Made by a program: the position numbers and the translations under genes | Source: a virus | Virus record (IMG/VR): IMGVR_UViG_3300035663_000001 | Coordinates: 32,001-96,000 of that record | Length of the DNA: 64,000 nt | Reading direction: 5' to 3' (one strand) | Notes under the pieces: generated by a model | What the model was told of the DNA's origin: nothing | The model's database searches: none | Seen by the model: the letters and a program-made list of their open reading frames with translations, nothing else | Shown: piece after piece, positions 15,179 through 47,193 of the stretch | Layout of the letters: each line of letters begins with the position of its first letter | How positions within the stretch are numbered: the first letter of the stretch is position 1

Positions 15179-15234
15179 GCACGAACCGTGCCACAGGGCG
15201 GCCCCAGCGACTAAATTTTTTCGCTGCCACCTAG
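15179..15234. promoter_or_regulatory. Repeated motif copy 1 with minus-strand sigma54-like site
   Basis: CCCAGCGACTAAATTTT at 15203, CCTAG at +27; reverse complement of 15179-15193 is TGGCACGGTTCGTGC. Confidence 0.7.
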
Positions 15235-15409
15235 TAGTGACTCCGACGTCAACGACTCGGAGGGCAATTAAACTTATAACTTAACATTAAACTTATAACT
15301 TATTACATGGAAGCTAGAATCCTTAAATATCTAGATAACTAGCAGATTCCACAATGTCGTGGGACTGGGATAGTGAGAGTTTCAATTTTTCAGGAGAATC
15401 AAAATAATT

Positions 15410-15829
15410 ATGTCGTCTTTTTCTATTAGTGTTCCGGTGATGTTTGACAATGACGGTCAGGTTGATGACCAGGCTACTCTGACTGGATTCCAGTCGACTC
15501 TAGCTCAGTATAAGGCTGAGCGAGAGACGGAGGAGGCTACTATTGCGGCCGAAGTCCATCGTGTGTTTGATCAGCATACTGGATATATTGGCATGCCATT
15601 CTTGGTTAACACCGCCGTGTCGGCTCTCAATCCTCAGAACGGCAATTTCGCCATCCTGAAGGCCAAGGTTGAGGCATATATTCATGACAACTCGGATCGG
15701 ATGCAGAAGAAGGATCGTCAGACTGGGAAGGTAACTCAGGAAGCTGAGCCGCCTCGCACTCGCACTTTTGGCATTCGTAAGGGTGCTGGTGGTGGAGTCT
15801 GCCGCTGGTCGGATATTCCTCAGAAGTGA
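15410..15829 (+). CDS. Hypothetical protein with winged-helix-like RKGAGGG wing
   Basis: SD AGGAG; motif shared with 41614 and 54043. Confidence 0.7.
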   Translation: MSSFSISVPVMFDNDGQVDDQATLTGFQSTLAQYKAERETEEATIAAEVHRVFDQHTGYIGMPFLVNTAVSALNPQNGNFAILKAKVEAYIHDNSDRMQKKDRQTGKVTQEAEPPRTRTFGIRKGAGGGVCRWSDIPQK

Positions 15830-15875
15830 GTGTTGAGGCAAGTTTAACTTGCCTCTTCAAAGAAGAGATTTAAAC

Positions 15876-16073
15876 ATGGATCCTAATCAAACTTTAACAG
15901 ATCTTCGTTCCAAAGCTTTTCGTTTGTTACGTGCTTCAGAACGGGCTCAAGCCAATGATCAGTCTCCTTCCTTTTCCGAGGAAGATGTTCTGGCCTTGGT
16001 AGAAGGAGTCATCGCATTGGATGAATGGCTGGTTAAGGGAGGCTTCTTGCCTCAAGATTGGAACCAGAAGTAA
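15876..16073 (+). CDS. Phage-type small protein (MDPN...LDEWLxKGGFLPxDW)
   Basis: ORF with characteristic motif. Confidence 0.7.
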   Translation: MDPNQTLTDLRSKAFRLLRASERAQANDQSPSFSEEDVLALVEGVIALDEWLVKGGFLPQDWNQK

Positions 16074-16202
16074 CAAGTTTTTCTCCAATATGGAGAAGAA
16101 GATGCTCCCAGTGACGGTTACCAAAACTGGGCTTGACCGCAGAGTAACGGCTAAGTGACCCCGATAGCTTAATGTTCGGGGGATATTGAATAGGCGATAA
16201 GT

Positions 16203-16751
16203 CTATTCAATCAATGGCTCCATGCCGGAATTGGCAGACGGAGCGGACTTAAAATCCGCCGCTCTTAACGAGCGTCCCGGTTCGACTCCGGGTGGAGCCA
16301 CTCTTTTTTTATTCTTGCCCCGATAAGTTGGCGTTAAGGCATGACAATTAGGGCATAGCATTCTCAAATTGCTCAAGGAATTATCTTGAGAATTGCCGTT
16401 GATATGATCCAATTCCAAGGGAATGGGCTGGTCTAGCCATTCTGTTCTTTGGCAATTGGAGCATTGATGCGGGAAAATTCCTTCTAACAACAGACGCCTT
16501 TTCAATTTATACGATTGAATTGTTTGTTGATTAGAGAGGTAATCATTTAATGATCGTTTTGATCCCAATGCTTGGTGTCGACTCCAAGCTTGACCGATTA
16601 GGTGAGAGGTATCGATGTGCCATTTTTTAATGGCTCGATTAAGGGATTGGTAATTGCCACCGGCGGGTACTAGTCCTAATTTTTGTAATACTTCTCTGCG
16701 AGAAGTGGAAGTTAGGATCGCTTGTCTTAGTTGTATTTCAGAATAAGCCAT
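16203..16751 (-). CDS. HNH endonuclease (free-standing, homing-type)
   Basis: CSNC...LELDHINGN...NLRMLCPNCH; 3' end overlaps tRNA-Leu antisense. Confidence 0.9.
   Translation of the reverse strand: MAYSEIQLRQAILTSTSRREVLQKLGLVPAGGNYQSLNRAIKKWHIDTSHLIGQAWSRHQALGSKRSLNDYLSNQQTIQSYKLKRRLLLEGIFPHQCSNCQRTEWLDQPIPLELDHINGNSQDNSLSNLRMLCPNCHALTPTYRGKNKKRVAPPGVEPGRSLRAADFKSAPSANSGMEPLIE
16216..16300 (+). tRNA. trnL: tRNA-Leu (anticodon UAA)
   Basis: Acceptor GGCTCCA/TGGAGCC, anticodon loop CTTAAAA, long variable arm, T loop TTCGACT. Confidence 0.95.
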
Positions 16752-16780
16752 TAACGATAATATATCTACTTAGGAAATAT

Positions 16781-17254
16781 ATGCAATATCAATCGATGGT
16801 TCAGAATTCTCCAGATTATTGGCAGCAGCAATTACCGACTTGGTTAGAGGTCAAGCGGAGCAAAAAGTTTGTGTCACCAGTCAAGTCCAATCCAATTCAG
16901 GGATCGGAAGATGTGGCGGCAGCTTTCTCTTTTTTAAGAGAGTTGTTGCATGAGGAGTTGCATGTCTTAGCTTTGACGGCGAGCAATCATATTTTGCATG
17001 CGACTAAGGTAGGGATGGGAGGTCCGGGAGGAGTTTCCTGTTATGCGGCGGATTTTTTCCGGATGCCATTAGTGGTGGGGGCTCGGGGAGTAATTGTGGT
17101 TCACAACCATCCCAGTGGTAATTCTCGACCTAGTCCGGAAGATATTTTTTTTACTCAGGAATTAATGAAGGTTGCGCATGTGCTAAAGATTACTTTATTA
17201 GATCATGTGGTAATTGGGGAAGATCATTCTTCTATTATTAATCTCATTTCTTGA
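16781..17254 (+). CDS. radC: RadC-like JAB domain protein
   Basis: HNHPSG...PSxED...LLDHVVIG. Confidence 0.9.
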   Translation: MQYQSMVQNSPDYWQQQLPTWLEVKRSKKFVSPVKSNPIQGSEDVAAAFSFLRELLHEELHVLALTASNHILHATKVGMGGPGGVSCYAADFFRMPLVVGARGVIVVHNHPSGNSRPSPEDIFFTQELMKVAHVLKITLLDHVVIGEDHSSIINLIS

Positions 17255-17260
17255 GGAAAA

Positions 17261-17479
17261 ATGCATCAATATAATATTGAAAATAGATTTGTTATTCAAG
17301 ACAATGGTGAAGATATTCTGAGCATTACTGATCATGATGATTACACTACCAGTATTAAGATTAATCATCCTGGAGCCTCTATTTCTTTACGGCTTGGTGA
17401 GAATGATCTTAAAAAGATTGTCACGAGATTAAATTCTCGAATTCAAGAGTTAGCGACTATTAAACAAAATAAAGGATAA
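17261..17479 (+). CDS. Hypothetical protein
   Basis: SD GAGG. Confidence 0.6.
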   Translation: MHQYNIENRFVIQDNGEDILSITDHDDYTTSIKINHPGASISLRLGENDLKKIVTRLNSRIQELATIKQNKG

Positions 17480-17593
17480 ATATATGTTATTAATGGTATT
17501 TTTTATGTTATTGGTGCTGGGTACGTTGGGTGGATTTTTGGCGGGACTCATGACTTCTTTTTTGGTGAAGAGGTATGTAAAGAGAATCTTTGC

Positions 17594-18067
17594 ATGACAC
17601 AGGAAAACAAATCTATTGCAACAATAAAAGAAGATCTATATGGTAAAATTTATAAACTCAATGGTCAATTCCATCGAGAAGATGGTCCGGCAATAGAAGA
17701 TTATAATGGAGATAAAGAGTGGTGGCTTAATGGTCAACGGCATCGAGAAAATGGTCCCGCTATAGAATATATTAATGGATATAAAGAATGGTTTATTCAT
17801 GGCAAAAGACATCGAGAAGATGGTCCAGCTATCGAATATTCTAATGGAACTAAATATTGGTATCTTCATGGCAAACGACATCGAGAAGATGGTCCAGCAG
17901 TAGAAGATACTACTGGCTATAAAGAATGGTGTCTGAATGGACGCCTTCATCGAGAAGGTGGCCCTGCCATAGAATATGATAATGGCGATAAAGAATGGTG
18001 GATTAATGGTCAACAATATTTAGAAGAAGAATATTGGCGAGTAGTTAAATTAAAAGCTTTATGGTAA
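17594..18067 (+). CDS. HREDGPA-repeat protein, KLKALW class
   Basis: Five repeats; ends EEEYWRVVKLKALW. Confidence 0.9.
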   Translation: MTQENKSIATIKEDLYGKIYKLNGQFHREDGPAIEDYNGDKEWWLNGQRHRENGPAIEYINGYKEWFIHGKRHREDGPAIEYSNGTKYWYLHGKRHREDGPAVEDTTGYKEWCLNGRLHREGGPAIEYDNGDKEWWINGQQYLEEEYWRVVKLKALW

Positions 18068-18071
18068 TCTA

Positions 18072-18470
18072 ATGGCAGACTATTTAATCTCATATTATGA
18101 TGATGAGAAGACATATTATCATCCAACCAAATTTTGTTACCATCGAACAGATGGCCCTGCTAAAGAATATGCTAATGGAGATAAAGAATGGTTTTTTCAT
18201 GGCAAACGACATCGAGAAGATGGTCCGGCGGTAGAGACTGCTTTAGGTAGTAAACATTGGTACTTAAATAATTATCTTCATCGAGAGCATGGTCCTGCCA
18301 TAGAATGGCAGACTGGAGATAAGGAATGGTGGCTTCATGGTCAACTTCATCGAGAAGATGGTCCGGCCAAAGAATATGCTGATGGATTGAAAGTATGGTA
18401 CCTTCAAGGTAAAAAATATACCGAAGAAGAACATTCGCGATTAGTCAAACTTAAATATTTTTGGAGATAA
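18072..18470 (+). CDS. HREDGPA-repeat protein, KLKALW class
   Basis: Four repeats; ends RLVKLKYFWR. Confidence 0.9.
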   Translation: MADYLISYYDDEKTYYHPTKFCYHRTDGPAKEYANGDKEWFFHGKRHREDGPAVETALGSKHWYLNNYLHREHGPAIEWQTGDKEWWLHGQLHREDGPAKEYADGLKVWYLQGKKYTEEEHSRLVKLKYFWR

Positions 18471-18473
18471 ATC

Positions 18474-20759
18474 TTGAGTTTTCAACAAGATGAGAAGGGA
18501 AATAAGCGATGGACCGTTAAGGGTCAATATCACCGAGAGGATGGCCCAGCTATTGAATGGGTAGACGGGACCAAGTTCTGGTACCAGAATGGTAAGAAGC
18601 ATCGTTTACATGGTCCGGCTATTGAGTGGCCGAATGGTAATCAAGAATATTACTTGCATGGTAATGCTTTTAATAAAGAAGATTACTTATCATTAATGGC
18701 TTCTTTAGCCAAGAAAGAGCCATTTATTATTTCTGGCAATACCGAAACTTCTTCGGTTGAGTATCAAAATGGAATTACCAGTTATGTTTTAAATGGGAAA
18801 TTACACCGAGAAGATGGCCCAGCTAGAGAATATGCTAATGGAACTAAAGAGTGGTGGTTTCATGGTGAGCTTCATCGAGAAGATGGACCGGCAGTAGAAG
18901 GTACTGATGGGCATAAAGAATGGTGGGTTAATTATAAATTGCATCGAGAAGGTGGTCCAGCTATCGAATGTGTTAATGGAAATAAAAAATGGTATCTTCA
19001 TAACGAATTACATCGAGCAGATGGTCCAGCGGTAGACTGGGCTGATGGATTCAAACAATGGTGGATTCATGGCGAAAACTATTCAGAACAAGACTGGAAT
19101 ATCGCCAAGAAAAAATTATCTATTGAGGCATCGTCTAATAAAAAGAAGACAACTTCTAGCTTGCCAAAGGCTGTCAAAGTGACAAATATTAAAAAGAAAA
19201 GTGTAACATCTAAAAATTCTGCTGATAATAAAAAGTTAGTTGATTCTACTCAACCGATGATGACAATAGATGAAGCTGGCACTAAGTGCTGGAAACTGAA
19301 TGACCAACTCCATCGAGAAGATGGTCCAGCGTTAGAATATATTAATGGAGCTAAATGGTGGTATCGTCATGGAGATCTTCATCGAGAAGATGGTCCGGCG
19401 ATAGAATATGCTAATGGAGATACATCATGGTATCTTAATAATAAATTACATCGAGAAGATGGGCCAGCGTTAGAGAGTGCTGAGGGTCTAAAATTTTGGT
19501 ACCTGCAAGGTAACCAATATACTGAAGCTGGGTGGAAGAAGAAAGTTTCTGCGATGAAGAAGAAAGATATTAAGTCTAAAACTGCGTCTCATGAAGCTAC
19601 TGATTCTACTCAACCAGTGATGGAAGTAGACAACTATGGAATTAAGCGATGGAAATTAAATGGTAGATTACATCGAGAGGATGGTCCAGCAGTAGAATCT
19701 ATTAATGGAAATAAAGAGTGGTATTGTCATGGCCAACTTCATCGAGTAGATGGTCCTGCCATAGAATGGTATGATGGAGATAAATGGTGGTACCTGAAAG
19801 GTAAAAAATATACTGAAGCTGGGTGGAAGAAGCAAGTTTCTTCGATGAAGAAGAGAGATGTTAACTCTAAAACTGTGTCTCATGAAGCTAATGATCCTAC
19901 TCAACAAGTAATGGAAGTAGTTGAAGATGGCACTAAGTACTGGAAACTAAATGGTCAATTACATCGAGAAGATGGTCCGGCCATAGAATGGTTTAATGGA
20001 CGTAAAGATTGGTATCTTCATGATAAACTTCATCGAGAAGATGGACCCGCTTTAGAATATACTGATGGTAGTAAATTTTGGTATCTTCATGGTCAATGCC
20101 ATCGAGTAGATGGTCCGGCGATAGAGTGGACTGATGGAGATAAGTATTGGTATCTTCATGGGAAATTACATCGAGACGATGGGCCAGCTATCGAATGGTG
20201 TAATGGAGATAAAAAATGGTTCCTTCAAGGTAAAGAATATACAGAAGAAGAGTATGGTAAAAAACTTTTTCCAGCAGTCAATACCATCGCAAAACCAGCC
20301 GATTCTGCTTGGCAACATTTAACCTCTGATCTATCTCACGGAACTTTCCGAGTAGCCGCTAAGACTATTCCCAAAACTGCTCGTACTGCCTTATTAGCTT
20401 TTCTCAAAACTAAGAAAGTTAAAAAGAGCTGGCTTCTTTCAGCCGAAGAGATGATGTCCACCGAGTTGGGTTTAGCCTTTATTCAGCAAGTCTTAGCCTG
20501 GAGTTTTAGGTCTCTACCTCAACTGAAGGAAGACCCCAGGGCAACAGCTTTGGCTAATGAATGGGCGATTGATAGCGTAGCTATTATTGGAAATGAAGTC
20601 ACTCAAGAATTAGCTGCATATTTTGCTCCAATTATTTCTCAAGTTATGGAATTGCCTTCCTCTAACATTAGAGTATCCCCTCTGACTTCTACAGATCGCT
20701 CTTTAGAAGAAGAGGAAATTGAGACTATGGAAACTCTCCAACAACAGGCAACAAGTTAA
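18474..20759 (+). CDS. HREDGPA-repeat protein, long class (largest member)
   Basis: Five modules plus shared C-terminal domain; TTG start uncertain. Confidence 0.9.
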   Translation: MSFQQDEKGNKRWTVKGQYHREDGPAIEWVDGTKFWYQNGKKHRLHGPAIEWPNGNQEYYLHGNAFNKEDYLSLMASLAKKEPFIISGNTETSSVEYQNGITSYVLNGKLHREDGPAREYANGTKEWWFHGELHREDGPAVEGTDGHKEWWVNYKLHREGGPAIECVNGNKKWYLHNELHRADGPAVDWADGFKQWWIHGENYSEQDWNIAKKKLSIEASSNKKKTTSSLPKAVKVTNIKKKSVTSKNSADNKKLVDSTQPMMTIDEAGTKCWKLNDQLHREDGPALEYINGAKWWYRHGDLHREDGPAIEYANGDTSWYLNNKLHREDGPALESAEGLKFWYLQGNQYTEAGWKKKVSAMKKKDIKSKTASHEATDSTQPVMEVDNYGIKRWKLNGRLHREDGPAVESINGNKEWYCHGQLHRVDGPAIEWYDGDKWWYLKGKKYTEAGWKKQVSSMKKRDVNSKTVSHEANDPTQQVMEVVEDGTKYWKLNGQLHREDGPAIEWFNGRKDWYLHDKLHREDGPALEYTDGSKFWYLHGQCHRVDGPAIEWTDGDKYWYLHGKLHRDDGPAIEWCNGDKKWFLQGKEYTEEEYGKKLFPAVNTIAKPADSAWQHLTSDLSHGTFRVAAKTIPKTARTALLAFLKTKKVKKSWLLSAEEMMSTELGLAFIQQVLAWSFRSLPQLKEDPRATALANEWAIDSVAIIGNEVTQELAAYFAPIISQVMELPSSNIRVSPLTSTDRSLEEEEIETMETLQQQATS

Positions 20760-20760
20760 T

Positions 20761-21162
20761 ATGATTAATAAGAAAATGCCCATTATGTCCACTACCTTTG
20801 CTGGTGGAAAAATTTGGAAATTAAATGGACTATATCATCGACAAGATGGTCCTGCCATTGAAAGACACAATGGCTCGAAAGAATACTACCTGTTCGGCCA
20901 ACTTCATCGAGAAGATGGTCCAGCCATTATTAACCGTAATGGTGACCAAGAATGGTGGAGTCATAATCAATTACACCGAGATGATGGTCCAGCGGTAGAA
21001 TATGCTGATGGAACTAAGATGTGGTATTTTCACGGTCTTCTCCATCGAGAAGGCGGGCCAGCCATTATCTATCCCAATGGAGTAGAATTATTTTACCTAG
21101 AAGGTAAAGAATTAGAACCTGAAGAATATTCTCAAAAACTTCTAATTAAAAATGAATTTTAA
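20761..21162 (+). CDS. HREDGPA-repeat protein (short)
   Basis: Four repeats. Confidence 0.85.
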   Translation: MINKKMPIMSTTFAGGKIWKLNGLYHRQDGPAIERHNGSKEYYLFGQLHREDGPAIINRNGDQEWWSHNQLHRDDGPAVEYADGTKMWYFHGLLHREGGPAIIYPNGVELFYLEGKELEPEEYSQKLLIKNEF

Positions 21163-21214
21163 TATCTTATGGGTCACCAAAGATAGTTTATCTGATTTTC
21201 GACTGGAGAATTAA

Positions 21215-21619
21215 ATGAGAATTCTAATTTTAGATGACGACCAATTTCGCCATAATTTTTTCCGAGAATCTTTTATTGCAGACGAAGTAATTAGTGTGCA
21301 TAAATTTTCTGAATTCTTGCATCATTTACACACCGGTTCTCCTTGGGATTTAATTCACTTAGACCATGATTTATGTGATTTGGTGGAAGGTGATACTTTT
21401 GTCGATGATTTTGGTAAACAGCAAGAGTTTAATGGTCAACATGCGGCTTGGCAGATTTGTCAACTAACAGATAATCTGTTACCTAAACAGATTATCATTC
21501 AATCGGTGAATGATGATGGGGCGTTGGCTATGTTAAAAATTATCAAAGCTCGTGGTGTAGAAGTTAAGTGGGAACCTTTTGCAGAATGCCCTCCAGATTT
21601 AGAGGTATTACATGACTAA
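21215..21619 (+). CDS. Stand-alone receiver-like protein (cyclic-phosphate-processing receiver type)
   Basis: MRILILDDDxxR...DLIHLDHDL...IIIQSVN; SD GGAG. Confidence 0.7.
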   Translation: MRILILDDDQFRHNFFRESFIADEVISVHKFSEFLHHLHTGSPWDLIHLDHDLCDLVEGDTFVDDFGKQQEFNGQHAAWQICQLTDNLLPKQIIIQSVNDDGALAMLKIIKARGVEVKWEPFAECPPDLEVLHD

Positions 21620-22844
21620 CCCTTCTTTTTTAATGTGTGTTGATCTTGATGGAAATAAAAGTTACTATAATCCTGATGAGGATTATCTCCATCGAGAGGA
21701 TGGTCCAGCCATAGAACGGGTTAATGGAAATAAAGAATGGTGGCTTAATGGTCAGCGACATCGAGAAGATGGTCCGGCCATAGAATGGTCTAATGGAAAT
21801 AAACAATGGTATCTTCATGATCAACTACATCGAGAAGATGGTCCAGCAGTAGAGCTGTTTAATGGATATAAAGAATGGCGTCTTCATGACAAATTACATC
21901 GAGAAGATGGCCCAGCACTAGAATATTCTAATGGAGATAAATTCTGGTATCTTCAAGGCGAAAAATATTCATAAACCGAGTGGATGAAAAAAGTGGCTGC
22001 CATGAAAAAGAAAACTGCCGCTCCAACCCATCAACAGATTGATTCTACTCAGCCAGTGATGGAAGTAGATAAAGATGGCAATAAGTTTTGGAAGTTGAAT
22101 GGTCTCTTACATCGAGAAGATGGGCCAGCCGTAGAATATCCTAATGGAAATAAATGCTGGTGTTTTCATGGAAAACTCCATCGAGAAGATGGTCCAGCTA
22201 TAGAATATAATAATGGGGCTAAATGTTGGTGTATTCATGGTAAACTCCATCGAGAAGATGGGCCAGCATTAGAAATGCCTAATGGATATAAAGAATGGCG
22301 GCTTCAAGATAAAATCTACACTGAAACCGAGTGGAAAGAAAAAACAGCTAATATAAATAAGAAATGTGTCTCTCCATCTAATGGAGAGATAAATGTCCTG
22401 CCTTCAGCATGGAATTATTTTACTGCTGATGTAAATCAAGCTGCCTTTAGAGTAGCGGCTAAATCTATTTCTAAAACCGCCAGAGTAATGTTACTTGCTT
22501 TTCTGAAAAACAAGCAAGTAAAAAAGAGCTGGATTAAAACAGCTAAAGAAATTATGGAGACAGAATGGGGTTTAGCTTTTATTCAACAGATTCTAGCTTG
22601 GATTTTTAGATATCTGCCATCATTGCAAAATGAACCTCGAGCTCAAGCATTAGCTAATGAATGGGCTATTGATAGTGTAGCTATCATTGGAAATGAAATG
22701 TTATCAGAAGTAATTTCGTTTTTGAAACCCATTATGTCTCAAGTAATAGAACTTCCTCATCCTTCAATCAGGATTTCTGAATCTTCTAACACAGCAGAAG
22801 AAGAATTACTTGAACTGCCAGCAGTCAAACATCAAACAGTTTGA
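21612..22844 (+). pseudogene. Long-class repeat gene split by an in-frame TAA at 21972-21974
   Basis: Reads GEKYS*TEWMKKVAAM in one frame; paralogs have Q or E at this position. Confidence 0.75.
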
Positions 22845-22881
22845 TTAGTTTTTAATCGCTGGATTCTAGTCAGGCTGGAAT

Positions 22882-22913
22882 CCCAGCGACTAAATTTTTT
22901 CGCTGCTCCCTAA
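22882..22913. promoter_or_regulatory. Repeated motif copy 2
   Basis: CCCAGCGACTAAATTTTTTCGCTGCTCCCTAA. Confidence 0.7.
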
Positions 22914-23942: not shown

Positions 23943-24017
23943 GACTCTATCGTCTAACTAGGTTAAGACAACGGCATCTAACACCGTCTAATATGGGTTC
24001 GATTCCCATTAGAGTCT
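23943..24017 (+). tRNA. tRNA with CUA anticodon (putative amber suppressor)
   Basis: Acceptor GACTCTA/TAGAGTC, D stem GTCT/AGAC, loop AT-CTA-AC, T arm ATGGG-TTCGATT-CCCAT; C31-A39 mismatch and A32 are atypical. Confidence 0.75.
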
Positions 24018-24122
24018 CTATGACATATATGTTTATTATCATTGGATTAATGGCTGCTAGTTTTATAGTTCAATCTATTATTGTTTGGGTCTTATGGTCT
24101 TCGTGGGAAGATTAAAAACCAC

Positions 24123-29385: not shown

Positions 29386-29562
29386 TGGAGAAATTATGCA
29401 GGATATTGCAGTAGAAATTTTAAATATTTGGATGAAGGAAGCTTTCGCGGCAGGCGATTATGATCGCTTTTGTCGGATGGAAATGTTACGGCAAATTATT
29501 TCTACCAAGAACAACTAACATATTTTTAGTGTCACGGTAATTACCGTGAGACTGTAACGCGT

Positions 29563-29594
29563 CCCAGCGACTAAATTTTTTTACTGGTCCCTAG
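29563..29594. promoter_or_regulatory. Repeated motif copy 3
   Basis: CCCAGCGACTAAATTTTTTTACTGGTCCCTAG, 4 nt before ATG 29599. Confidence 0.7.
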
Positions 29595-37241: not shown

Positions 37242-38324
37242 ATGTCAGATTGGAATTGTCAAGTTTGTCGAATAGAAAAGTTAGAAAAACATCCTAATGC
37301 AGATAGTCTCTCTATTGCCACCGTAATGTCCGACTATCCAGTCGTGGTAAAAACAGAAGACTACCATCTCAACCAATTAGTAGGTTATATTGCTATCGAT
37401 ACTATTGTTCCAGATACAGAACAATTCTATTTTCTATCTCCTAAAAATATAGAGAAATATGAAGAAAATGGAGAAATTAAAACTCGACCCAATGGGATGA
37501 AATATCCTCTTGGCTCTGTTCCAGAAAAGAATCGAGTAATTAAAGCTAAGAAAATTAGAAATGTTTATTCTCAGGGAATGTTAGTTCCAGCCCCACCTCA
37601 CCTACAAGAAGGAGATTCTCTAGTAGAAGTCCTTAACCTAAAAAAGGTAGTAGAAGAGGAAGAAGAGAATATTACTAAATTTAAAAATAGTAATGCTGAG
37701 AAACCTCCAACTAACTGGGCCATTCCTTATTATGATATTGAAGGAATTCGGAAGTATATTAATTGTTTTCGTCCTCAAGAAGAGATTACCATTACAGAAA
37801 AATTACATGGAAGTAATGCAGCTTTTTGCTATGATGGTCAGCGTTTATGGGTTAAATCTAGAAATTTTTATAAAAAATTAGACCCGGATGATATGTGGTG
37901 GGATCTTGCTCTCAGGTATAATTTAGAAGAAAAACTATCTAAGTTTCCCAAACTAGTCTTCTTTGGAGAGGCTATTGGACAAGTCAAAGGATTTAGATAT
38001 GATTCTAGTATTAAAGATGGTAAATTACATACTACAGTTCATTTCTTTGATGTTTATGATGCTCATAATAATAGGTATTTAGATTATCAAGAAAGAGTTG
38101 ATAAAATCAATCAACTGGAATTGTCTCCGGCTCCAGAATTATATCGTGGCCCCTGGTTAGGAAAAGAGCACGCCTATCAATTTGCCGAAGGAATGTCTAC
38201 TCTTAACTCTAAACATGTTAGAGAAGGCGCCGTAATAGTTCCTCTTCATGAGAGATTTGAGCCACGACTTAATGGCAGATTACAATTAAAAATAATTGGT
38301 CAAGGATACAATTTGTTAAAGTGA
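37242..38324 (+). CDS. ATP-dependent RNA ligase, DRB0094/Rnl5-like
   Basis: N-terminal HPNADxL...SQG OB-like module; TEKLHGSN (motif I), FGE, FFD, REG and C-terminal K. Confidence 0.88.
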   Translation: MSDWNCQVCRIEKLEKHPNADSLSIATVMSDYPVVVKTEDYHLNQLVGYIAIDTIVPDTEQFYFLSPKNIEKYEENGEIKTRPNGMKYPLGSVPEKNRVIKAKKIRNVYSQGMLVPAPPHLQEGDSLVEVLNLKKVVEEEEENITKFKNSNAEKPPTNWAIPYYDIEGIRKYINCFRPQEEITITEKLHGSNAAFCYDGQRLWVKSRNFYKKLDPDDMWWDLALRYNLEEKLSKFPKLVFFGEAIGQVKGFRYDSSIKDGKLHTTVHFFDVYDAHNNRYLDYQERVDKINQLELSPAPELYRGPWLGKEHAYQFAEGMSTLNSKHVREGAVIVPLHERFEPRLNGRLQLKIIGQGYNLLK

Positions 38325-39042: not shown

Positions 39043-39083
39043 CTATTAATCTAGGATTAGAGTTAATTTGACGCCAACAATCT

Positions 39084-39137
39084 TGGCACGTTTCTTGCCA
39101 CCGCTCCCAGCGACTAAATTTTTTCGCTGCTCCCTAA
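39084..39137. promoter_or_regulatory. Repeated motif copy 4 with sigma54-like site readable on both strands
   Basis: TGGCACGTTTCTTGC (39084-39098) on +, TGGCAAGAAACGTGC on -; motif at 39106. Confidence 0.7.
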
Positions 39138-39182: not shown

Positions 39183-40319
39183 ATGACTACACGTTCTTTT
39201 ATTGTCCCGGTCGCTAACCAAAGCATCGTGGAGCAAAAAATTGAGAAATTAAATAAGCGGGCTCTAAAATTAAAACTGGAGCCCGTTTCCATTACCTGGG
39301 GTAAAGCATTCTTAGAGCAAGATAAACTATGCTTGCCTTGCGAATTAACTGGACCTTTTCAAGTGTCTTATGATGGTTGGGAGTTTATTGCTACCTTACA
39401 GCATCTTCCTACCGGAGAAAATATCATTAGAGCCATTACTAATGATTATGAAATTCCTCTTCAATATCGTACTTCCGGTAGCGCTTGCGAACATTGTAAT
39501 GTTAAAAGATATCGCAAAGATACTTACGTTGTACGACATGATGCTACTTGTGAGGCATTGCAAGTAGGATCTTCTTGTATTAAAGATTTTCTAGGAGGAA
39601 ATTCTCCTGATAATATCTTGCAGCAAGCTGCCTTGGTCGGCGAATTAATTTCCTTTATGGAAGGTGCTCGTCACAATAATTTTGAAAATAATGAAGGCAT
39701 TTATTATTTAAACCATGTCTTAGCGCAAGCGGCAGCTTGTATTAGAGAATGTGGATGGATGTCTAAGACTGAAGCTAAAGAAACTGGAAAACTAGCTACG
39801 GCTACCGTAGTAGAATATAATCTATTACAAGATAGCACTTATGGTTTATTTCCGGTGTCGACTGAAGATCGAGAGTTAGCAGAACAAGCTATTAATTGGG
39901 TAGAAAATCTGTCTGATGAAGAAGTAGAAAACTCTGATTATCTCTATAACATTAGAGCCATTGCTCGTTCTGGAATGGTTGGAGTTAGAACTATTGGATA
40001 TAGTGTTAGTATTATTTCTTCATATTTACGTCAAGTTAAACAGTTACAGTTTAAAAAAGAATCTCAATTTGTTGGATTAGTAAATGATAGAAGTGTTTTT
40101 ACTCTCAACCTTAAAAAGGTGACCGGGTTTTCTGGAAATTATGGTTGGACCAATAAATATATTTTTCATGACCCTGCTGGTAACATTTTAGTATGGTTAA
40201 CCTCTACCTCTAAAGATTTGCAAGAGGGGCAGCAATACCAAATTAAAGCCACAGTCAAGGCTCACCAAGAATTCAAATCCATTAAAGAAACAATTCTTAC
40301 TAGATGCGAAATTTTATGA
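39183..40319 (+). CDS. Phage protein with Zn-binding motif and probable C-terminal OB fold
   Basis: CEHC...QVGSSC; C-terminal IKATVKAHxEFxxIKETILTR. Confidence 0.75.
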   Translation: MTTRSFIVPVANQSIVEQKIEKLNKRALKLKLEPVSITWGKAFLEQDKLCLPCELTGPFQVSYDGWEFIATLQHLPTGENIIRAITNDYEIPLQYRTSGSACEHCNVKRYRKDTYVVRHDATCEALQVGSSCIKDFLGGNSPDNILQQAALVGELISFMEGARHNNFENNEGIYYLNHVLAQAAACIRECGWMSKTEAKETGKLATATVVEYNLLQDSTYGLFPVSTEDRELAEQAINWVENLSDEEVENSDYLYNIRAIARSGMVGVRTIGYSVSIISSYLRQVKQLQFKKESQFVGLVNDRSVFTLNLKKVTGFSGNYGWTNKYIFHDPAGNILVWLTSTSKDLQEGQQYQIKATVKAHQEFKSIKETILTRCEIL

Positions 40320-40633: not shown

Positions 40634-40652
40634 GAGTAACGTCAATAAGATT

Positions 40653-41090
40653 ATGAAAAAATTTAAAGTTGGAGATTTAGTACAAAAAATAAAAGATAAT
40701 TCTATTATGGATGGTCAAGTAACCGAATTAGTAGGAGAAAAATTTTTAGTATCATGGACTGATGGCTCTTCCTCTGAAGAGGACTACTATCGTCTCTCTA
40801 ATAGAGACTCTCTTTTCGAGAGAGAATTTAGACTAGAAGCTATGAAGAGATTAAAAGAAATTGATGAGCATTTAGAAAATGCTTGTCGGGAATTAGATGC
40901 GGCCGTAAATATTTCAGAAAAATATGGCATCCCATTTTCTACAAATATTTCTTTTATTAGTCAAAATTATAATCCTAAATCCAGATCAAAAAAATATCCT
41001 GATCTGGATTCAGACTTCTTAGAAAGTGTCACGGGCACTTATGGTAGCGAAGATGATTATGGATGGCAGCATTCTGCTGTATGCTATTAA
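40653..41090 (+). CDS. Hypothetical protein
   Basis: FKVGDLV start. Confidence 0.65.
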   Translation: MKKFKVGDLVQKIKDNSIMDGQVTELVGEKFLVSWTDGSSSEEDYYRLSNRDSLFEREFRLEAMKRLKEIDEHLENACRELDAAVNISEKYGIPFSTNISFISQNYNPKSRSKKYPDLDSDFLESVTGTYGSEDDYGWQHSAVCY

Positions 41091-41137
41091 AATTAACTTA
41101 ACAATTAATAATTAACCTTGATAGAAAGATAAAAAAT

Positions 41138-41461
41138 ATGACAAACCGAATTATGTTTTTGCGAGATACTAAGAATCATCCTGTAGGATGTGTAGCTATT
41201 AATTTTGATTTTCAGACTAGCCAACTGAGTTATCAGTTGTCAGTTTTGAATCCAAACGATAAGTTTGACCGTAAGATGGCTCGCCATTTAGCTTTGGGTC
41301 GTTTAGTAGAAAGGCCCTTTAGTGTTACTATTCCAGCGGTACTTAAGTATAGTATGCATGATGTGACCAAGCTAGTTATGAGTGATATTAGCAATAATAT
41401 CAAGTCGCCTTCTCGAGCTAAAAAGGCAGCTCAATTATGGTTGCATCAGAATAGTGTTTGA
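41138..41461 (+). CDS. Hypothetical protein
   Basis: NPxDxFxRKxARxxALGR motif. Confidence 0.7.
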   Translation: MTNRIMFLRDTKNHPVGCVAINFDFQTSQLSYQLSVLNPNDKFDRKMARHLALGRLVERPFSVTIPAVLKYSMHDVTKLVMSDISNNIKSPSRAKKAAQLWLHQNSV

Positions 41462-41480
41462 CTAGTTTTTACTGGCGGCT

Positions 41481-41542
41481 TGCAAGCCTCGTGCCAGCTG
41501 GGTAGGTGTTCCCAGCGACTAAATTTTTTTAACACCACCTAG
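41481..41542. promoter_or_regulatory. Repeated motif copy 5 with minus-strand sigma54 consensus site
   Basis: Reverse complement of 41481-41496 is TGGCACGAGGCTTGCA; motif at 41511. Confidence 0.75.
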
Positions 41543-41548
41543 TACTGC

Positions 41549-41584
41549 GACCAACCAACGAGAGATAAGTTGGTTGGTCTTTTT
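41549..41584 (+). terminator. Intrinsic terminator-like hairpin
   Basis: GACCAACCAAC-loop-GTTGGTTGGTC followed by TTTTT. Confidence 0.6.
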
Positions 41585-41613
41585 ATTACCTTTTAATTGG
41601 AGAATTTAAAATT

Positions 41614-41943
41614 ATGGATAGCAAGCAACACATCGAGTTAGTTCTGAATCAGCGTCTTCGTCCCATTTTTGAGAAGGCGGCTGCTAAAATTGATAGCCTT
41701 CGACCCGGAGAGAAAGTTCCCGCAACTGAGTTAGCTAAGGAACTCGGCAAAGAAATTGGTATGACAGGACCTCAATTGTATCCTACTCTTTTGTTCCTCT
41801 TTAAGGATTTTCCTGGTATTGAGATTAAGCGTGGGGCTCATGGCGGTTTATGTAAGTTACCTACCACGAAAACCGTGGTAGATACGGCCACACCAGATGT
41901 TAAGGTAGATGTTACTAATTCAGAAGAGACTCTCTCAGAGTGA
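41614..41943 (+). CDS. Winged-helix-like DNA-binding protein
   Basis: PGEKVPATELAKELG...IKRGAHGG; SD GGAG. Confidence 0.7.
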   Translation: MDSKQHIELVLNQRLRPIFEKAAAKIDSLRPGEKVPATELAKELGKEIGMTGPQLYPTLLFLFKDFPGIEIKRGAHGGLCKLPTTKTVVDTATPDVKVDVTNSEETLSE

Positions 41944-41991
41944 ACGAAATATACTAATTAAAATATATTTGATTTGTTTAAAGGAGAAAAA

Positions 41992-42222
41992 ATGAATTTA
42001 GAAGATCTTGAAGAGGCGTTAGAAGAGTTATTTCCATCAGGTTTTCATACGACTAAGGATAGTCGGGGTCAAATTATTATTATGACTGGTCTGTGTGAAG
42101 AGGATGATGGAGAGTTAGTAGAACTTCTATCTGCTGAAGATGAAGAGGATGATGATTTTGATTCTGATTTTTCATCCATGGATGATGAAGATTTTGTTGA
42201 TGAGTCTGATGACGATCATTGA
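41992..42222 (+). CDS. Acidic small protein
   Basis: SD AAGGAG. Confidence 0.65.
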   Translation: MNLEDLEEALEELFPSGFHTTKDSRGQIIIMTGLCEEDDGELVELLSAEDEEDDDFDSDFSSMDDEDFVDESDDDH

Positions 42223-42628
42223 TCTTAATCAAGAAATTAAATGCCACGAAGAAGGAGATTACTCTATTATAGAAATTTCTTGTGGCATTAAGAAATATTA
42301 TTACCGTAATGTTGGTTATCGAACTGTATATCCTAATGGATTTTCTATCTACCATAAAAATGGTACTCTTCATCGAGAAGATGGTCCTGCTATAGAGCGC
42401 CCAGATGGCCATCAAGAATGGCGTCTCAATGGTCTATTTCATAGGACTGATGGTCCAGCTTTAATAGATAAAAAAGGTAATAAAAAGTGGTATTGTAATG
42501 GAGAATTACATCGTACAGATGGGCCGGCTATTGAAATGATTAGTGGTCGCGTGTATTATTACTTACAGGGTAAAAGAATTTATTCTGTCAATAAATTTAA
42601 TCGTTTAGTTAAACTTCAATTTATTTAG
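42209..42628 (+). CDS. HREDGPA-repeat protein (start uncertain)
   Basis: Three repeats; ends RLVKLQFI. Confidence 0.8.
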   Translation: MTIIDLNQEIKCHEEGDYSIIEISCGIKKYYYRNVGYRTVYPNGFSIYHKNGTLHREDGPAIERPDGHQEWRLNGLFHRTDGPALIDKKGNKKWYCNGELHRTDGPAIEMISGRVYYYLQGKRIYSVNKFNRLVKLQFI

Positions 42629-42642
42629 AATTTACAAGACAA

Positions 42643-43104
42643 ATGAAGCCGACTTATATCTTAACCTCTAATAAAACTAAAAAATATATGTTGAATGGGC
42701 AGCTTCATCGAGAAGATGGACCGGCTATTATAAATACAAATGGAGATAAGTTGTGGTATTTAAACGATCTTCTCCATCGAGAAGATGGCCCAGCCATAGA
42801 GCGTGTTAATGAAAGTAAACATTGGTTTCTTCATGGCGAATGCCATCGAGCAGATGGCCCTGCTACTGAATATAAAGATCATACCAGATATTATCTTTAT
42901 AATAAGTTACATCGAACAGATGGGCCAGCAGTAGAGTGGAGTAATAATTCTAATTCTTATCAGGTATGGTACTTTTTAATGTCAGGTTTGACAGATTATA
43001 AAGATATAGAATATCCTGTTGAAGGAAAACGCTGGTATCTTGAAGATAAAGAATATACCGAAGAAGAATATTGGCGAATGCTTAAGTTACAAGCTTTATG
43101 GTAA
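42643..43104 (+). CDS. HREDGPA-repeat protein, KLKALW class
   Basis: Ends KLQALW. Confidence 0.9.
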   Translation: MKPTYILTSNKTKKYMLNGQLHREDGPAIINTNGDKLWYLNDLLHREDGPAIERVNESKHWFLHGECHRADGPATEYKDHTRYYLYNKLHRTDGPAVEWSNNSNSYQVWYFLMSGLTDYKDIEYPVEGKRWYLEDKEYTEEEYWRMLKLQALW

Positions 43105-43409
43105 AGTATGATGAATTTGGTATTAAAAGATATTTAGTAAATGGAGAATTACATCGAGAAGATGGCCCGGCCGTAGAATTTAGCAATGGAGAAAAACATT
43201 GGTGTCTTCATGGTCAGCTTCATCGAGAAGATGGACCTACAGTAATATATGCTAATGGAAGTAAAAACTGGTATTTGCATGATCGATTGCATCGAGAAGA
43301 TGGTCCAGCGATAGAAAACGCTAATGGAGAGAAATGGTGGTACCTTCAAGGTAAACAATATACAGAAGAAGAATATTGGCGGACGGTTAAATTAAAAACT
43401 TTATGGTAA
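43098..43409 (+). CDS. HREDGPA-repeat protein, KLKALW class
   Basis: Starts at ATG within the junction; ends KLKTLW. Confidence 0.85.
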   Translation: MVKYDEFGIKRYLVNGELHREDGPAVEFSNGEKHWCLHGQLHREDGPTVIYANGSKNWYLHDRLHREDGPAIENANGEKWWYLQGKQYTEEEYWRTVKLKTLW

Positions 43410-44101
43410 AAATTAAAGAAAAAAATTTTAATAGGTATTTAATACAGAGCTTGTGCGTTCTATTTACTCTACTAATTTATAGTATATTTCTGGGTTGGAA
43501 ACTAGGTATACTTTTAGTAGTAAGTATCTCTTTACATGAGATGAGTCATCTTTGGGCGGCCCAAAGATTGGGAATGAAAACTCATGGTTTTATCTTGTTA
43601 CCTTTTATTGGAGGCTTGGCTTTTATTGGAGGAACTTATAAAAGTCATAAACATAATGTCATTGTGTCTTTAGCCGGTCCCTTGGGTGGAAGTTTATTTG
43701 CGGCATTGACAGCCGTTCTATATCAGTTAACCGGCCTTTTAATTCTGAAAGAAACGGTAGTTTTAATGAGCATATTAAATATATTTAATATGCTTCCGCT
43801 AGCATTTTTAGATGGCGGACAAGTTTTTAATTGTATTGGAAGCTCTATTGATAAACGTTTAGGATTTTATCATTTAATTTTTACTTCAGTAGTAATTGTA
43901 TTCTTCTTATGGAAGATTAATGTCATCTTAGCGGTGGCTATTATTCTGCTTTCTTCCTTAAGAATATTAGATGATTACTCTAATATCTTTAAAAAGAAAA
44001 AGGTATTTGTTGCCTTAACATTAAGTGAGATATTTCAAACACTACTAGCTTGGTTATTTATTTACTACCTACTACTATTTCTATTACTTACCTTTATCTA
44101 A
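43403..44101 (+). CDS. M50/site-2 membrane metalloprotease
   Basis: HEMSH, AGP and NMLPxxxLDGG motifs; multiple hydrophobic segments. Confidence 0.88.
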   Translation: MVKIKEKNFNRYLIQSLCVLFTLLIYSIFLGWKLGILLVVSISLHEMSHLWAAQRLGMKTHGFILLPFIGGLAFIGGTYKSHKHNVIVSLAGPLGGSLFAALTAVLYQLTGLLILKETVVLMSILNIFNMLPLAFLDGGQVFNCIGSSIDKRLGFYHLIFTSVVIVFFLWKINVILAVAIILLSSLRILDDYSNIFKKKKVFVALTLSEIFQTLLAWLFIYYLLLFLLLTFI

Positions 44102-44357
44102 ATTACTAAAAATTAGGTTAAGTAGTACAGCAACACTTCCCCCTATTAGATCCCCCGATCATTTGTCGAGAGACACTTCGTATATTAAAATCTTTTAACG
44201 TGTCTAAAGCTATAAATATATTTAACACAAACGCGGCTAGTGGAAGCGTCACAGCTAGGTTTTAAACTTTAAAAATATGTATAATTTCAGGATGACTGTT
44301 TATAAATTGTTCTTAAGGCTAGTCAAGATTTAATCCCAGTGCCAGCATAAAATGATC

Positions 44358-44675
44358 ATGCAAAAGATAAAATCTGATAAATATGGAAATAAATATTATT
44401 TTTGGGACCTTTGTCTTCATCGAGAAGATGGTCCGGCCGTAGAATTTGTTAGCGGAACTAAAGAGTGGTATATTCACGACAAACTCCATCGACTAGATGG
44501 TCCAGCGATAGAATATTTTGATGGAGGTAAATCATGGTATCTTCATGGTCGACGCCATCGAGAAGATGGCCCGGCATTAGAATTTATTAATGGATACCGA
44601 GAATATTACCTTCAAGGTAAAGAATATTCAGAAGAAGAGTATTGGCGAGTGGTTAAATTAAAAGCTTTATGGTAA
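44358..44675 (+). CDS. HREDGPA-repeat protein, KLKALW class
   Basis: First gene of a six-gene array. Confidence 0.9.
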   Translation: MQKIKSDKYGNKYYFWDLCLHREDGPAVEFVSGTKEWYIHDKLHRLDGPAIEYFDGGKSWYLHGRRHREDGPALEFINGYREYYLQGKEYSEEEYWRVVKLKALW

Positions 44676-44678
44676 AAT

Positions 44679-45065
44679 ATGCAAGAAATTAAGATAAATA
44701 AATATGGTACTAAATTTTATTATTGGAACGGTCAGCTTCATCGAGAAGCTGGACCCGCCATAGAATTTACTAATGGCAGTAACGAATGGAGGCTTTATGA
44801 TCGTTGGCATCGAGAAGCTGGGCCAGCAATAGAATATATTAATAAATATAAAGCTTGGTATGTTAATGGTAAAAGACATCGAGAAGATGGGCCTGCTCTA
44901 GAATATGTTAGTGGATATAAAGAATGGTATCATCATGGCGATCTACATCGAGAAGATGGACCAGCCGTAGAAGATGCTAATGGTACTAAATATTGGTGCC
45001 TTCAAGGCAAAAGATATTCCGAAGAAGAATATTGGAGATTAGTCAAGCTAAAAGCATTATGGTAA
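44679..45065 (+). CDS. HREDGPA-repeat protein, KLKALW class
   Basis: Four repeats. Confidence 0.9.
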   Translation: MQEIKINKYGTKFYYWNGQLHREAGPAIEFTNGSNEWRLYDRWHREAGPAIEYINKYKAWYVNGKRHREDGPALEYVSGYKEWYHHGDLHREDGPAVEDANGTKYWCLQGKRYSEEEYWRLVKLKALW

Positions 45066-45068
45066 AGT

Positions 45069-45386
45069 ATGCAAGAAATTACAATAGATGAACACGGGAC
45101 TAAAAGATATTATTGGAATAACCAATTACATCGAGAAGATGGTCCTGCGATAGAATATGCTAATGGATCTAAAGAGTGGTGTCTTAATGGTCAATATCAT
45201 CGAGAAGATGGCCCGGCATTAGAATATTCTAATGGAGACAAATTCTGGTATTTGCATGATCAATTTCATCGAGAAGATGGTCCGGCCGCAGAATATGCTA
45301 ATGGAGATAAAGAGTGGTTCCTTCACGGTAAAAAATATACAGAAGAAAAATATTGGCGTTTAGTTAAGCTAAAAGCTTTGTGGTAA
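45069..45386 (+). CDS. HREDGPA-repeat protein, KLKALW class
   Basis: Three repeats. Confidence 0.9.
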   Translation: MQEITIDEHGTKRYYWNNQLHREDGPAIEYANGSKEWCLNGQYHREDGPALEYSNGDKFWYLHDQFHREDGPAAEYANGDKEWFLHGKKYTEEKYWRLVKLKALW

Positions 45387-45389
45387 AAT

Positions 45390-45638
45390 ATGCAAGAAAT
45401 TACGATAGATAAATTTGGCACTAAAAGATATTTTTGGAGTAATAAACTCCATCGAGAAGATGGACCAGCAATAAAATATATTAATGGATATAAACAATGG
45501 TATCATCATGGTCAACGGCATCGAGAAGGTGGTCCGGCCATAGATTATGTTAATGGATTTAAAAAATGGTATCTTCAAGGTGAATCATATTCAGAAGAAG
45601 AGTATTGGAGATTAGTTAAATTAAAAGCATTATGGTGA
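45390..45638 (+). CDS. HREDGPA-repeat protein, KLKALW class
   Basis: Two repeats. Confidence 0.9.
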   Translation: MQEITIDKFGTKRYFWSNKLHREDGPAIKYINGYKQWYHHGQRHREGGPAIDYVNGFKKWYLQGESYSEEEYWRLVKLKALW

Positions 45639-45641
45639 AGT

Positions 45642-46028
45642 ATGCAAGAAATTAAAATAGATGAACGTGGGACTAAAAGATACTATTGGAATGGCCAACT
45701 CCATCGAGAAGATGGACCAGCTATCGAATGGTATGATGGAAATAAATATTGGTATCTTCATGGTCAACGACATCGAGAAGATGGTCCGGCTGTAGAGTAT
45801 GTTAATGGAGATAAATATTGGTATCGTCATGATCAACTACATCGAGAAGATGGTCCAGCCGTAGAGTGGAGTAATGGATCTAAAGAATGGTTGCTTCATA
45901 ATCAACTCCATCGAGAAGATGGTCCGGCAGTAGAATATGTTGATGGTACTAAATTTTGGCATCTTAAAAATAAGAGATACACAGAAAAAAAGTATTGGCG
46001 AATGGTTAAATTAAAAGCTTTATGGTAA
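45642..46028 (+). CDS. HREDGPA-repeat protein, KLKALW class
   Basis: Four repeats. Confidence 0.9.
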   Translation: MQEIKIDERGTKRYYWNGQLHREDGPAIEWYDGNKYWYLHGQRHREDGPAVEYVNGDKYWYRHDQLHREDGPAVEWSNGSKEWLLHNQLHREDGPAVEYVDGTKFWHLKNKRYTEKKYWRMVKLKALW

Positions 46029-46032
46029 AGTA

Positions 46033-46281
46033 ATGCACGGAATTAATATAGACAAAAATGGAAATAAATTTTATTATTGGAATGATCGATATCATCGAGA
46101 AGACGGTCCAGCGATAGAATTTTCTAATGGAAATAAATGGTGGTATCTTCATGATCTCTTACATCGAGAAGATGGGCCAGCGGTAGAATATGCTGATGGA
46201 TATAAAGAGTGGTATCTTCAAAATAAACAATATACAGAAGAAGAATATTGGCGAATACTTAAATTAAAAACTTTATGGTAA
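46033..46281 (+). CDS. HREDGPA-repeat protein, KLKALW class
   Basis: Two repeats. Confidence 0.9.
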   Translation: MHGINIDKNGNKFYYWNDRYHREDGPAIEFSNGNKWWYLHDLLHREDGPAVEYADGYKEWYLQNKQYTEEEYWRILKLKTLW

Positions 46282-46307
46282 AGTATGCAAGAAATTGAAA
46301 GGTACGT

Positions 46308-47130
46308 ATGAAACAAGGTTTTTCCTGCCCAAGTCCCGAGATATTTGTTCCGATTGACCTCAGTAAATGTACTGATGTTTTTCCTCCAGGTTTGTACGAA
46401 ACCTGTTATGACCGTCAATATGGGTTTTTATTTTAAAAAATTAGATATTGAGCAAAGAAGAATCTTTGCTTTTCAAGATGATACGAGTGACTTTATCATT
46501 AAAGACATCCAAAAATTTTGGACCCTGAAAGATAAGTACGCAGCATATCAAATGCCATTTAAGAGAGGAATCTTAATGTATGGACCGCCCGGATGTGGTA
46601 AGTCATCTATTATCTCTTTGTTGACATCTAATGTCACTTCTAAAGATGGCGTCGTAATTAAGTTTAATACTAACATCGACGTTTATAAAGAGTGTCTCTC
46701 TAAATTTAGAGAAATTTATCCGGATAAACCGATCATTGTTCTATTAGAAGATTTAAATTATATACTAGATAGTATTGATGAATCAGATTTTCTAAACATG
46801 TTAGATGGTTTAGAAAAATTTTCACACTCTACAGTATATCTTGGAACTACTAATTACATTAAAGATTTACAAAATAACATTAAAAATAGACCCAATAGAT
46901 TCGATCTAGTTTTAGAAGTTAAGCCTCCTCAAGCAAAAATTAGAAAAGAATATTTGCAAAAATTACTGTTAGGGAAATCTAAAATTGAAAACTTAGACCA
47001 ATGGGTCAAAGATACTGCTGGTTTTTCTTTTGCACATCTAGAAGAATTATTCAAATCTGTTTTCTTATTTGGAAGTGATTATCGATCTTCTATCACTAGA
47101 ATTAAAAGTATGATTGCGAATTCCGATTGA
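46308..47130 (+). CDS. AAA+ ATPase, probably frameshifted near 46425-46429
   Basis: GPPGCGKS, LLED, FLNMLDG, TTN and RPNRFD; a plausible N-terminus lies in another frame from ATG 46308. Confidence 0.85.
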
Positions 47131-47136
47131 ACCGGA

Positions 47137-47193
47137 TGCAATTTTCGTGCCACGGCCAGCTCCCAGCGACTAAATTTTATTCTCACGCCCTAG
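47137..47193. promoter_or_regulatory. Repeated motif copy 6 with minus-strand sigma54 consensus site
   Basis: Reverse complement of 47137-47152 is TGGCACGAAAATTGCA; motif at 47162. Confidence 0.75.

Follow-up and report, generated by a model that had tools for sequence, protein, structure and literature searches.

Introduction

Sigma-54 (RpoN) sites are textbook bacterial promoters, with the -24/-12 consensus TGGCACG-N4-TTGCW. We analyzed sequences of this type in a stretch of 64,000 nucleotides (the window), which comprises bases 32001-96000 of a 128,541-bp viral contig (IMG/VR record IMGVR_UViG_3300035663_000001). The source is a giant, uncultured, lake-borne phage, and the contig is a fragment of a very large genome, since CheckV rates it as 28% complete. 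In the window, sigma-54-type sequences (boxes) stand just upstream of copies of a repeated, promoter-like motif. Positions below are those of the window unless they are given as contig positions.

The closest bacterial counterparts are the antisense and intragenic sigma-54 sites of Escherichia coli and Salmonella. According to two reports (PMC4591121; PMC3844500), the sigma-54 holoenzyme is inactive when it binds promoters, many sites are antisense, intragenic or far from gene starts, and a site overlapping another promoter leads to repression; repression, interference and antisense RNA are among the roles proposed. Those sites are scattered, mostly imperfect and chromosomal. In contrast, the phage sites are near-perfect, intergenic, fixed beside a repeated motif and conserved in relatives. 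As in bacterial sigma-54 promoters, GG and GC are ten bases apart, TGGCACG and TTGC are both complete, and the N4 spacer is unconstrained. Unlike those promoters, three of the four sites in the window are directed away from all genes, the searches here yielded neither an enhancer site nor an activator gene, and the phage sites abut a second, phage-specific signal.

PeSL cassettes of T4-type phages pair a stem-loop with a sigma-70-type early promoter. They are the nearest published analogue in layout: a short composite signal recurs between small early genes, and in it a boundary element precedes a promoter (PMC4122927). The arrangement described here is not a PeSL, as its motif has no sigma-70 consensus and its boundary element is a sigma-54 box. 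A full-text literature search (supplements excluded) found no paper describing sigma-54 sites as recurring elements of phage genomes.

Results

Sigma-54-type boxes adjoin copies of a repeated motif

We observed that four out of six motif copies in the window have a sigma-54-type box 5-14 nt upstream. The motif contains an invariant 17-mer (CCCAGCGACTAAATTTT), and CCTA occupies motif positions 28-31 in 6/6 copies, so that the whole form is CCCAGCGACTAA-N15-CCTA. All six copies are intergenic and on the + strand, which holds nearly all genes of the window. The copies with a box are at 15203..15233, 39106..39136, 41511..41541 and 47162..47192; those at 22882..22912 and 29563..29593 have none. Boxes were scored as matches to the consensus TGGCACG-N4-TTGC (11 specified bases).

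By this score the window has three 11/11 sites and one 10/11 site, with the GG and GC ten bases apart. All four lie between the upstream stop codon and the motif, and their centers are 12-22 bp upstream of it (gaps were counted to motif starts at 15203, 39106, 41511 and 47162). The box at 15179-15193 (- strand, TGGCACGGTTCGTGC) scores 10/11, with GTGC for TTGC; it is 9 nt from the motif and includes a 5-bp palindrome, GCACG/CGTGC. The box at 41482-41496 (- strand, TGGCACGAGGCTTGC, 11/11) is 20 nt past the stop at 41461 and 14 nt from its motif. The third - strand box, at 47138-47152 (TGGCACGAAAATTGC, 11/11), is 7 nt past the stop of an AAA+ ATPase gene (46345-47130) and 9 nt from a motif copy that precedes 47222-47551 and a class II tRNA synthetase gene. 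The fourth box is palindromic (39084..39100), reading TGGCACGTTTCTTGC on the + strand (39084-39098, 11/11) and TGGCAAGAAACGTGC on the - strand (39086-39100, 9/11). It is 5 nt from the motif (7 nt for the plus reading) and 82-84 nt before the ATG at 39183 of a phrog_2319-like gene (39183-40319). The boxes at 41482 and 47138 are single and non-palindromic. The N4 spacers all differ (GTTC, TTTC, AGGC, AAAA and CAGG), as expected of a protein site and not of a stem.

A preliminary description of this DNA had placed boxes beside four of the six motif copies, and both our reading of the sequence and a pattern scan bear this out. Its coordinates were right for the sites at 15179 and 39086; the other two had been put at 41481 and 47137, each one base too far left. 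It had also reported that the 39-kb site reads as consensus on the + strand, which is indeed the better of the two readings.

Boxes are enriched and coupled to the motif

We found many more boxes than expected by chance. The whole contig contains 5 perfect boxes and 11 that match at least 10/11, where 40 dinucleotide shuffles gave means of 0.025 and 0.9, respectively. A reversed-pattern control found 0 perfect boxes and 1 at ≥10/11. In the window, a loose pattern gave 6 matches where 0.46 were expected, and 6 were reached in 0/100 shuffles.

Boxes are also coupled to the motif. Each of the 11 contig boxes at ≥10/11 has a motif copy at most 130 nt downstream; the zones so defined account for 2.2% of the contig. 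A box of at least 10/11 occurs in the 40 nt before 7/25 motif copies, compared to 0.007 in 2000 shuffles. Among the gaps of at least 60 nt in the window (n = 31), 4/6 of those bearing the motif have a box at ≥10/11 (Fisher p = 4.8e-4), and none of the other 25 reaches 9/11. Enrichment next to the motif over shuffled DNA, the check named in the preliminary description, is thus present, here by consensus matches instead of a position weight matrix, and the association is far above chance.

All 25 motif copies of the contig are on the + strand. Most (18/25) are packed at contig 22.0-28.4 kb, just upstream of the window, in tandem, paralogous units of 56-93 nt; one unit of 112 nt contains a tRNA. 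Directly before three copies (contig 24361, 26359 and 28320) are tRNA or tRNA-like 3' ends. Other copies begin 2 nt past stop codons and have a ribosome-binding site within the second half of the motif, so what is essential seems to be no more than the 17-mer.

Position is fixed and orientation is mixed

The motif reads strictly in one direction, and the boxes do not: some are antisense, some sense and some palindromic. Of the contig boxes at ≥10/11, 6 are on the + strand and 5 on the - strand. Three window boxes (15179, 41482 and 47138) aim into the 3' end of the upstream + gene with no minus-strand gene beyond, so none of the three faces a gene. The 39084 box and the sense boxes of the contig do face genes. 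The antisense orientation that had been described therefore holds for those three boxes and fails as a general rule, given the mixed orientations in the contig and the palindrome at 39 kb.

Two further arrangements occur in the arrays upstream of the window. Face-to-face pairs of boxes with 5-6-bp spacers stand ~35 nt before the first copy of each array (for example contig 24035/24056, spacer 6). The window boxes are nearer to the motif (5-14 nt) and are not such pairs, their best partners scoring 5-7 of 11. In addition, three strong sense boxes (contig 25905, 25998 and 26076) are each exactly 11 nt before the next motif copy; these three copies belong to paralogous tandem units. The gene strand of the contig flips from mostly minus (2.6-21.1 kb) to plus at ~21.5-22 kb, and the first box pairs and motif arrays stand exactly at this point of divergence.

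A box is kept at a syntenic place in relatives

We found 178 homologues of the phrog_2319-like protein at E ≤ 1e-10, and many lie on 200-440-kb contigs. From an alignment of 28 homologues, we retrieved 11 viral and 27 metagenome loci. One relative, G005 (353,765 bp, 79% complete; it includes loci L028 and L072), is syntenic with 37-42 kb of the window across six genes, at 40-62% identity. Upstream of its ortholog there is a perfect antisense box (GCAAGAACCGTGCCA) and, 9 nt on, its own form of the motif (CCCATCATGAAAC). The G005 box ends 81 nt before the ATG, compared to 82-84 nt in the window. At another locus, L070, a perfect antisense box (GCAAGGACCGTGCCA) precedes the ATG by the same 81 nt and a motif variant by 9 nt. 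The L070 protein is 69% identical to that of G005 and 56% identical to that of the window (52-56% for the two relatives against the window). Common to both, 81 nt before the orthologous ATG, is GCAAG(A/G)ACCGTGCCA, and in their alignment 19/20 bases are identical around the box and the flanks have diverged. A third locus, L067 (64% identity), has a palindromic 9/11 box 7 nt before CCCAGCGACCAAC. The orientation of the homologous sites differs, being sense/palindromic at 39084 and antisense in G005 and L070. In the G005 gap that is syntenic to the 41.5-kb site, the G005 motif is present and the box is absent. The comparison supports the view that the boxes are under selection, because one is kept at a syntenic place in relatives with diverged flanks.

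In G005 as a whole, the gene strand carries all 16 motif copies. The record also has 17 boxes at ≥10/11 (control 0), of which 16 are at 54.7-81.5 kb, upstream of these motif copies. A box lies within 30 nt of three motif copies, and face-to-face pairs are also found. In most of the 18 ortholog loci with at least 44% identity, a CCCA(G/T)C... motif precedes the start by 31-98 nt; in the five loci with 38% identity or less, we found neither a box nor a CCCA(G/T)C match. A further relative, G006 (67 kb), has nine CCCATC..TAACGG copies on its + strand and a single perfect box that is not beside a motif. Judged from these alignments and scans, the motif appears to be a lineage-wide CCCA(G/T)C...AAC family (16 copies in G005, 9 in G006, and loci L066-L092) whose sequence drifts and whose place ahead of orthologous genes is kept. 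The box, as far as these loci indicate, keeps its universal consensus while the motif drifts.

Other searches did not add relatives. Single-protein searches found no close relatives, and megablast of 10 kb against GenBank phages gave no match. With ≤1 mismatch allowed, there are 0 boxes in Salicola phage SCTP-2, which was the best GenBank match to one protein (30% identity). A pattern joining the box to CCCAGCG had 21 matches in IMG/VR, about the estimated chance number, with no relative among them, and the exact motif had three single matches there, all unrelated.

The box consensus also occurs in unrelated phages. In a huge phage of 216,910 bp (G001), 28 boxes are perfect, 22 of them forward and 6 reverse (control 0). 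At one of its loci (L022), 12 boxes at ≥10/11 all share one orientation and precede start codons by ~35-50 nt, and a conserved GTAACC leader comes after them; the arrangement resembles a single sense promoter for each small gene. The only PF00158 match in G001 is explained by a ClpB-like AAA+ protein and not by an activator, and no sigma-54 gene was found there. Three strong boxes also occur within 100 nt in a 53-kb phage that is complete and has terminal repeats (L011, 1789-1886); two of the three are back-to-back and 6 bp apart.

Different elements occupy the position upstream of the motif

The place of the box can be taken by something else. A palindrome of the TTACAG-N5-CTGTAA type is 5 nt before the box-less motif at 29563 (29541..29557, TTACCGTGAGACTGTAA, 11/12), where the box sits in other copies. 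A second (15161..15177, TTACAGTACGCATGTAA, 11/12) overlaps the stop codon of the upstream open reading frame, just left of the 15179 box, and G005 has four such sites 5-11 nt before motif copies. This 17-bp palindrome is probably an operator for some regulator. Other relatives have a small GC hairpin just before the motif, for example at loci L071 and L080, and at the box-less 22882 copy an upstream inverted repeat pairs with the first bases of the motif. The stretch just upstream of the motif thus appears to behave as an operator position that takes different inserts, because a box, a TTACAG-N5-CTGTAA palindrome or a hairpin occupies the same place in different copies.

We found that the boxes themselves are neither hairpins nor terminators. 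For the four boxed copies, folding of the 40 nt upstream was not stronger than in shuffles (z = -1.7, -0.7, -0.1 and +1.1). No stem-plus-T-run terminator was called at 15179, 41482 or 47138, and 39073-39087 contains a weak 5-bp stem, short of an intrinsic terminator. Folding z-scores of the motif RNA are scattered about zero.

No sigma-54 gene or activator was found

The preliminary description had proposed a search for a phage enhancer-binding protein, and no such gene was found in the contig or in G005. In the contig (28% of the genome by CheckV), we detected neither the sigma-54 domains PF04552 and PF04963 nor the activator domains PF00158 and PF14532. In G005 and G006, PF04552 gave nothing and PF00158 gave one sub-threshold AAA match (in G005). 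No enhancer site or upstream repeat besides the motif is shared around the four boxes. The signature loop of enhancer-binding proteins is GAFTGA. The classical AAA+ ATPase upstream of the 47138 box (261 residues) was rejected as an activator, as we saw no GAFTGA in its translation and it did not match PF00158.

Searches of the contig and G005 found no beta-subunit polymerase (PF00562) and no single-subunit T7-type polymerase (PF00940), the latter a weak blank, as its control also gave no match. This suggests, short of proof, that transcription in the lineage relies on the core polymerase of the host. If so, a sigma-70-type factor, from either phage or host, may read the motif. Sigma-70 region 2 was not found in the contig. 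G005 has a gene for a sigma-70-family protein of 209 residues (L061, G005:141670-144789); region 2 is the only region detectable in it, and it is a candidate reader of the CCCA... motif. There were no sigma-70-like matches at the motif, and their total was below that of shuffles (25 vs 37 and 40 vs 50). The 17-mer shares CGACT with the T7 promoter at an equal offset; a T7-like reading was left as unsupported.

Source and surroundings of the window

At least half of the sampled words of the stretch were present in 10 DNA runs labelled lake water metagenome. None of the 23 sequencing runs that matched the stretch was an RNA run. Comparison with four DNA runs (contigs only) revealed the identical strain in several lake-water runs, with no box differences listed. 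Joints at motif copies in these runs were repeat-driven only, with sides of 21-22 nt. This comparison carries no information on expression or conservation.

The window contains a tRNA with anticodon CTA (23943-24018, called by ARAGORN), which would read the amber stop codon, and elsewhere a tRNA-Lys, a tRNA-Leu and a weak call of tRNA-Cys; an Rfam scan found tRNAs only. Genes in the window include those for an RNA ligase (37242-38324), the class II (Lys-type) tRNA synthetase (47914-49458) and a Ro60/TROVE protein (60936-62489). Five phage genes match DUF6745.

Discussion

We infer that the boxes are genuine RpoN-type recognition sequences, because they match the consensus, appear to be under selection and recur with the same consensus in unrelated phages. 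It is reasonable to expect a host that uses RpoN. How the boxes might act is less clear. We tentatively favor, at somewhat less than even confidence, the notion that they are docking sites for the host sigma-54 polymerase in a regulatory slot beside a phage promoter, and that they act by being occupied. Occupancy is favored because the place of the box is fixed, its orientation is free and the slot interchanges with other elements. The host sigma-54 polymerase would dock on the box as a stable, silent closed complex abutting the upstream edge of the phage promoter. The docked complex would then either shield the promoter from transcription coming in from the upstream unit or gate the promoter. 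Producing a necessary transcript would not be the purpose of the boxes. Binding by RpoN, the role of the motif as a promoter and the principle of occupancy are all inferred from the sequence.

Several findings weigh against this notion. Intragenic sigma-54 sites of E. coli did not act as roadblocks, according to published reports (PMC4591121; PMC3844500), which weighs against the barrier version. The box is optional, because only 7/25 motif copies have a strong box within 40 nt and only 3 of the 18 ortholog loci at ≥44% identity (G005, L070 and L067) have a box of at least 9/11 upstream. The G005 boxes are 12 antisense and 5 sense, and all 5 perfect ones are antisense to genes, a bias that pure occupancy does not predict. 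Finally, if bases are counted after the -12 GC of the three sense boxes with 11-nt gaps, the sigma-54 start is the first base of the motif (C), and so exact a gap fits real promoters better than passive occupancy.

The last two findings also suit a different explanation, in which the boxes are working sigma-54 promoters served by a host or phage activator: antisense ones would shut off the upstream unit, by interference or antisense RNA, and sense ones would start at the first base of the motif. This is a strong rival, and on balance we consider it unlikely. The consensus quality exceeds that of E. coli sites listed in PMC4591121, and 4/8 of the intragenic Salmonella sites tested were active as promoters with a promiscuous activator (PMC3844500). 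Phages also apparently use such boxes as promoters, judging from the 28 perfect boxes of G001 and the 12 co-oriented boxes before starts at L022. However, the contig has no PF00158 or PF14532 activator and no sigma-54 gene, and G005, at 79% complete, lacks PF00158 and PF04552 apart from its one sub-threshold match. The motif is all that is conserved around the four sites. Beyond the window boxes there are no minus-strand genes and no consistent minus-strand terminator, and the orientation changes between homologous sites, from sense/palindromic at 39084 to antisense in G005 and L070.

Quite unlikely, in our view, is that the boxes are sites of a phage DNA-binding protein, either a regulator or a recombination factor at cassette borders, that resemble the sigma-54 consensus. 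Many copies are palindromic or face-to-face (15179, 39084, contig 24035/24056 and G005), which would suit a dimeric protein, the slot accepts another palindrome too, and the box-plus-motif layout recalls the gene-shuffling PeSL cassettes (PMC4122927). However, coincidence would hardly yield an 11-base match in which the N4 spacing is exact and the spacer letters are free, and the boxes at 41482 and 47138 are not palindromes. The same consensus in unrelated phage records points to a shared host factor. We think it still less probable that the boxes are decoys, with the replicating genome soaking up host sigma-54 holoenzyme and silencing the host sigma-54 regulon, and adjacency to the motif incidental. 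Near-perfect consensus, clustering and indifference to orientation would be expected of decoys, as would the stable inactive binding of the holoenzyme (PMC4591121). Such a role would leave unexplained why boxes occur only in motif-bearing gaps, always upstream and 5-14 nt off, and why one box is at a constant distance from an orthologous gene; there are, moreover, only 11 strong sites per 128.5 kb. The notion that the boxes are RNA or DNA hairpins, for instance terminators of the upstream unit or its processing signals, whose match to the consensus is due to chance, is close to refuted. It draws on the short inverted repeats in 15179 and 39084, on a hairpin in the same place at the box-less 29563 copy (z = -4.35) and on the GC hairpins just before the motif at L071 and L080. 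Against it, 47138 (z = +1.07) and 41482 (z = -0.06) fold no better than shuffles, there are no T-run terminators at the boxes, the spacer bases are not complementary in pairs, and only 0.025 perfect boxes are expected by chance.

Whichever way the boxes act, they are tied to the promoter-like signal of the phage, and one has kept its syntenic place across ~50% protein divergence. This coupling and retention argue for function. The sites also narrow the search for the host to rpoN-bearing bacteria. If the occupancy notion is correct, and the boxes are barriers or switches beside phage promoters, they would represent a new means by which a virus reads or exploits a sigma factor of its host, and would give a use to the many "silent" sigma-54 sites of bacteria. 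Extended to the whole clade of lake megaphages, the proposal is more doubtful: host sigma-54 RNA polymerase would serve as a trans-acting regulator, its silent closed complex in an operator-like slot insulating or gating a phage-specific promoter, and perhaps leaving by antisense firing once an activator appears. If true, the timing of phage gene expression would be wired to the sigma-54 state of the host.

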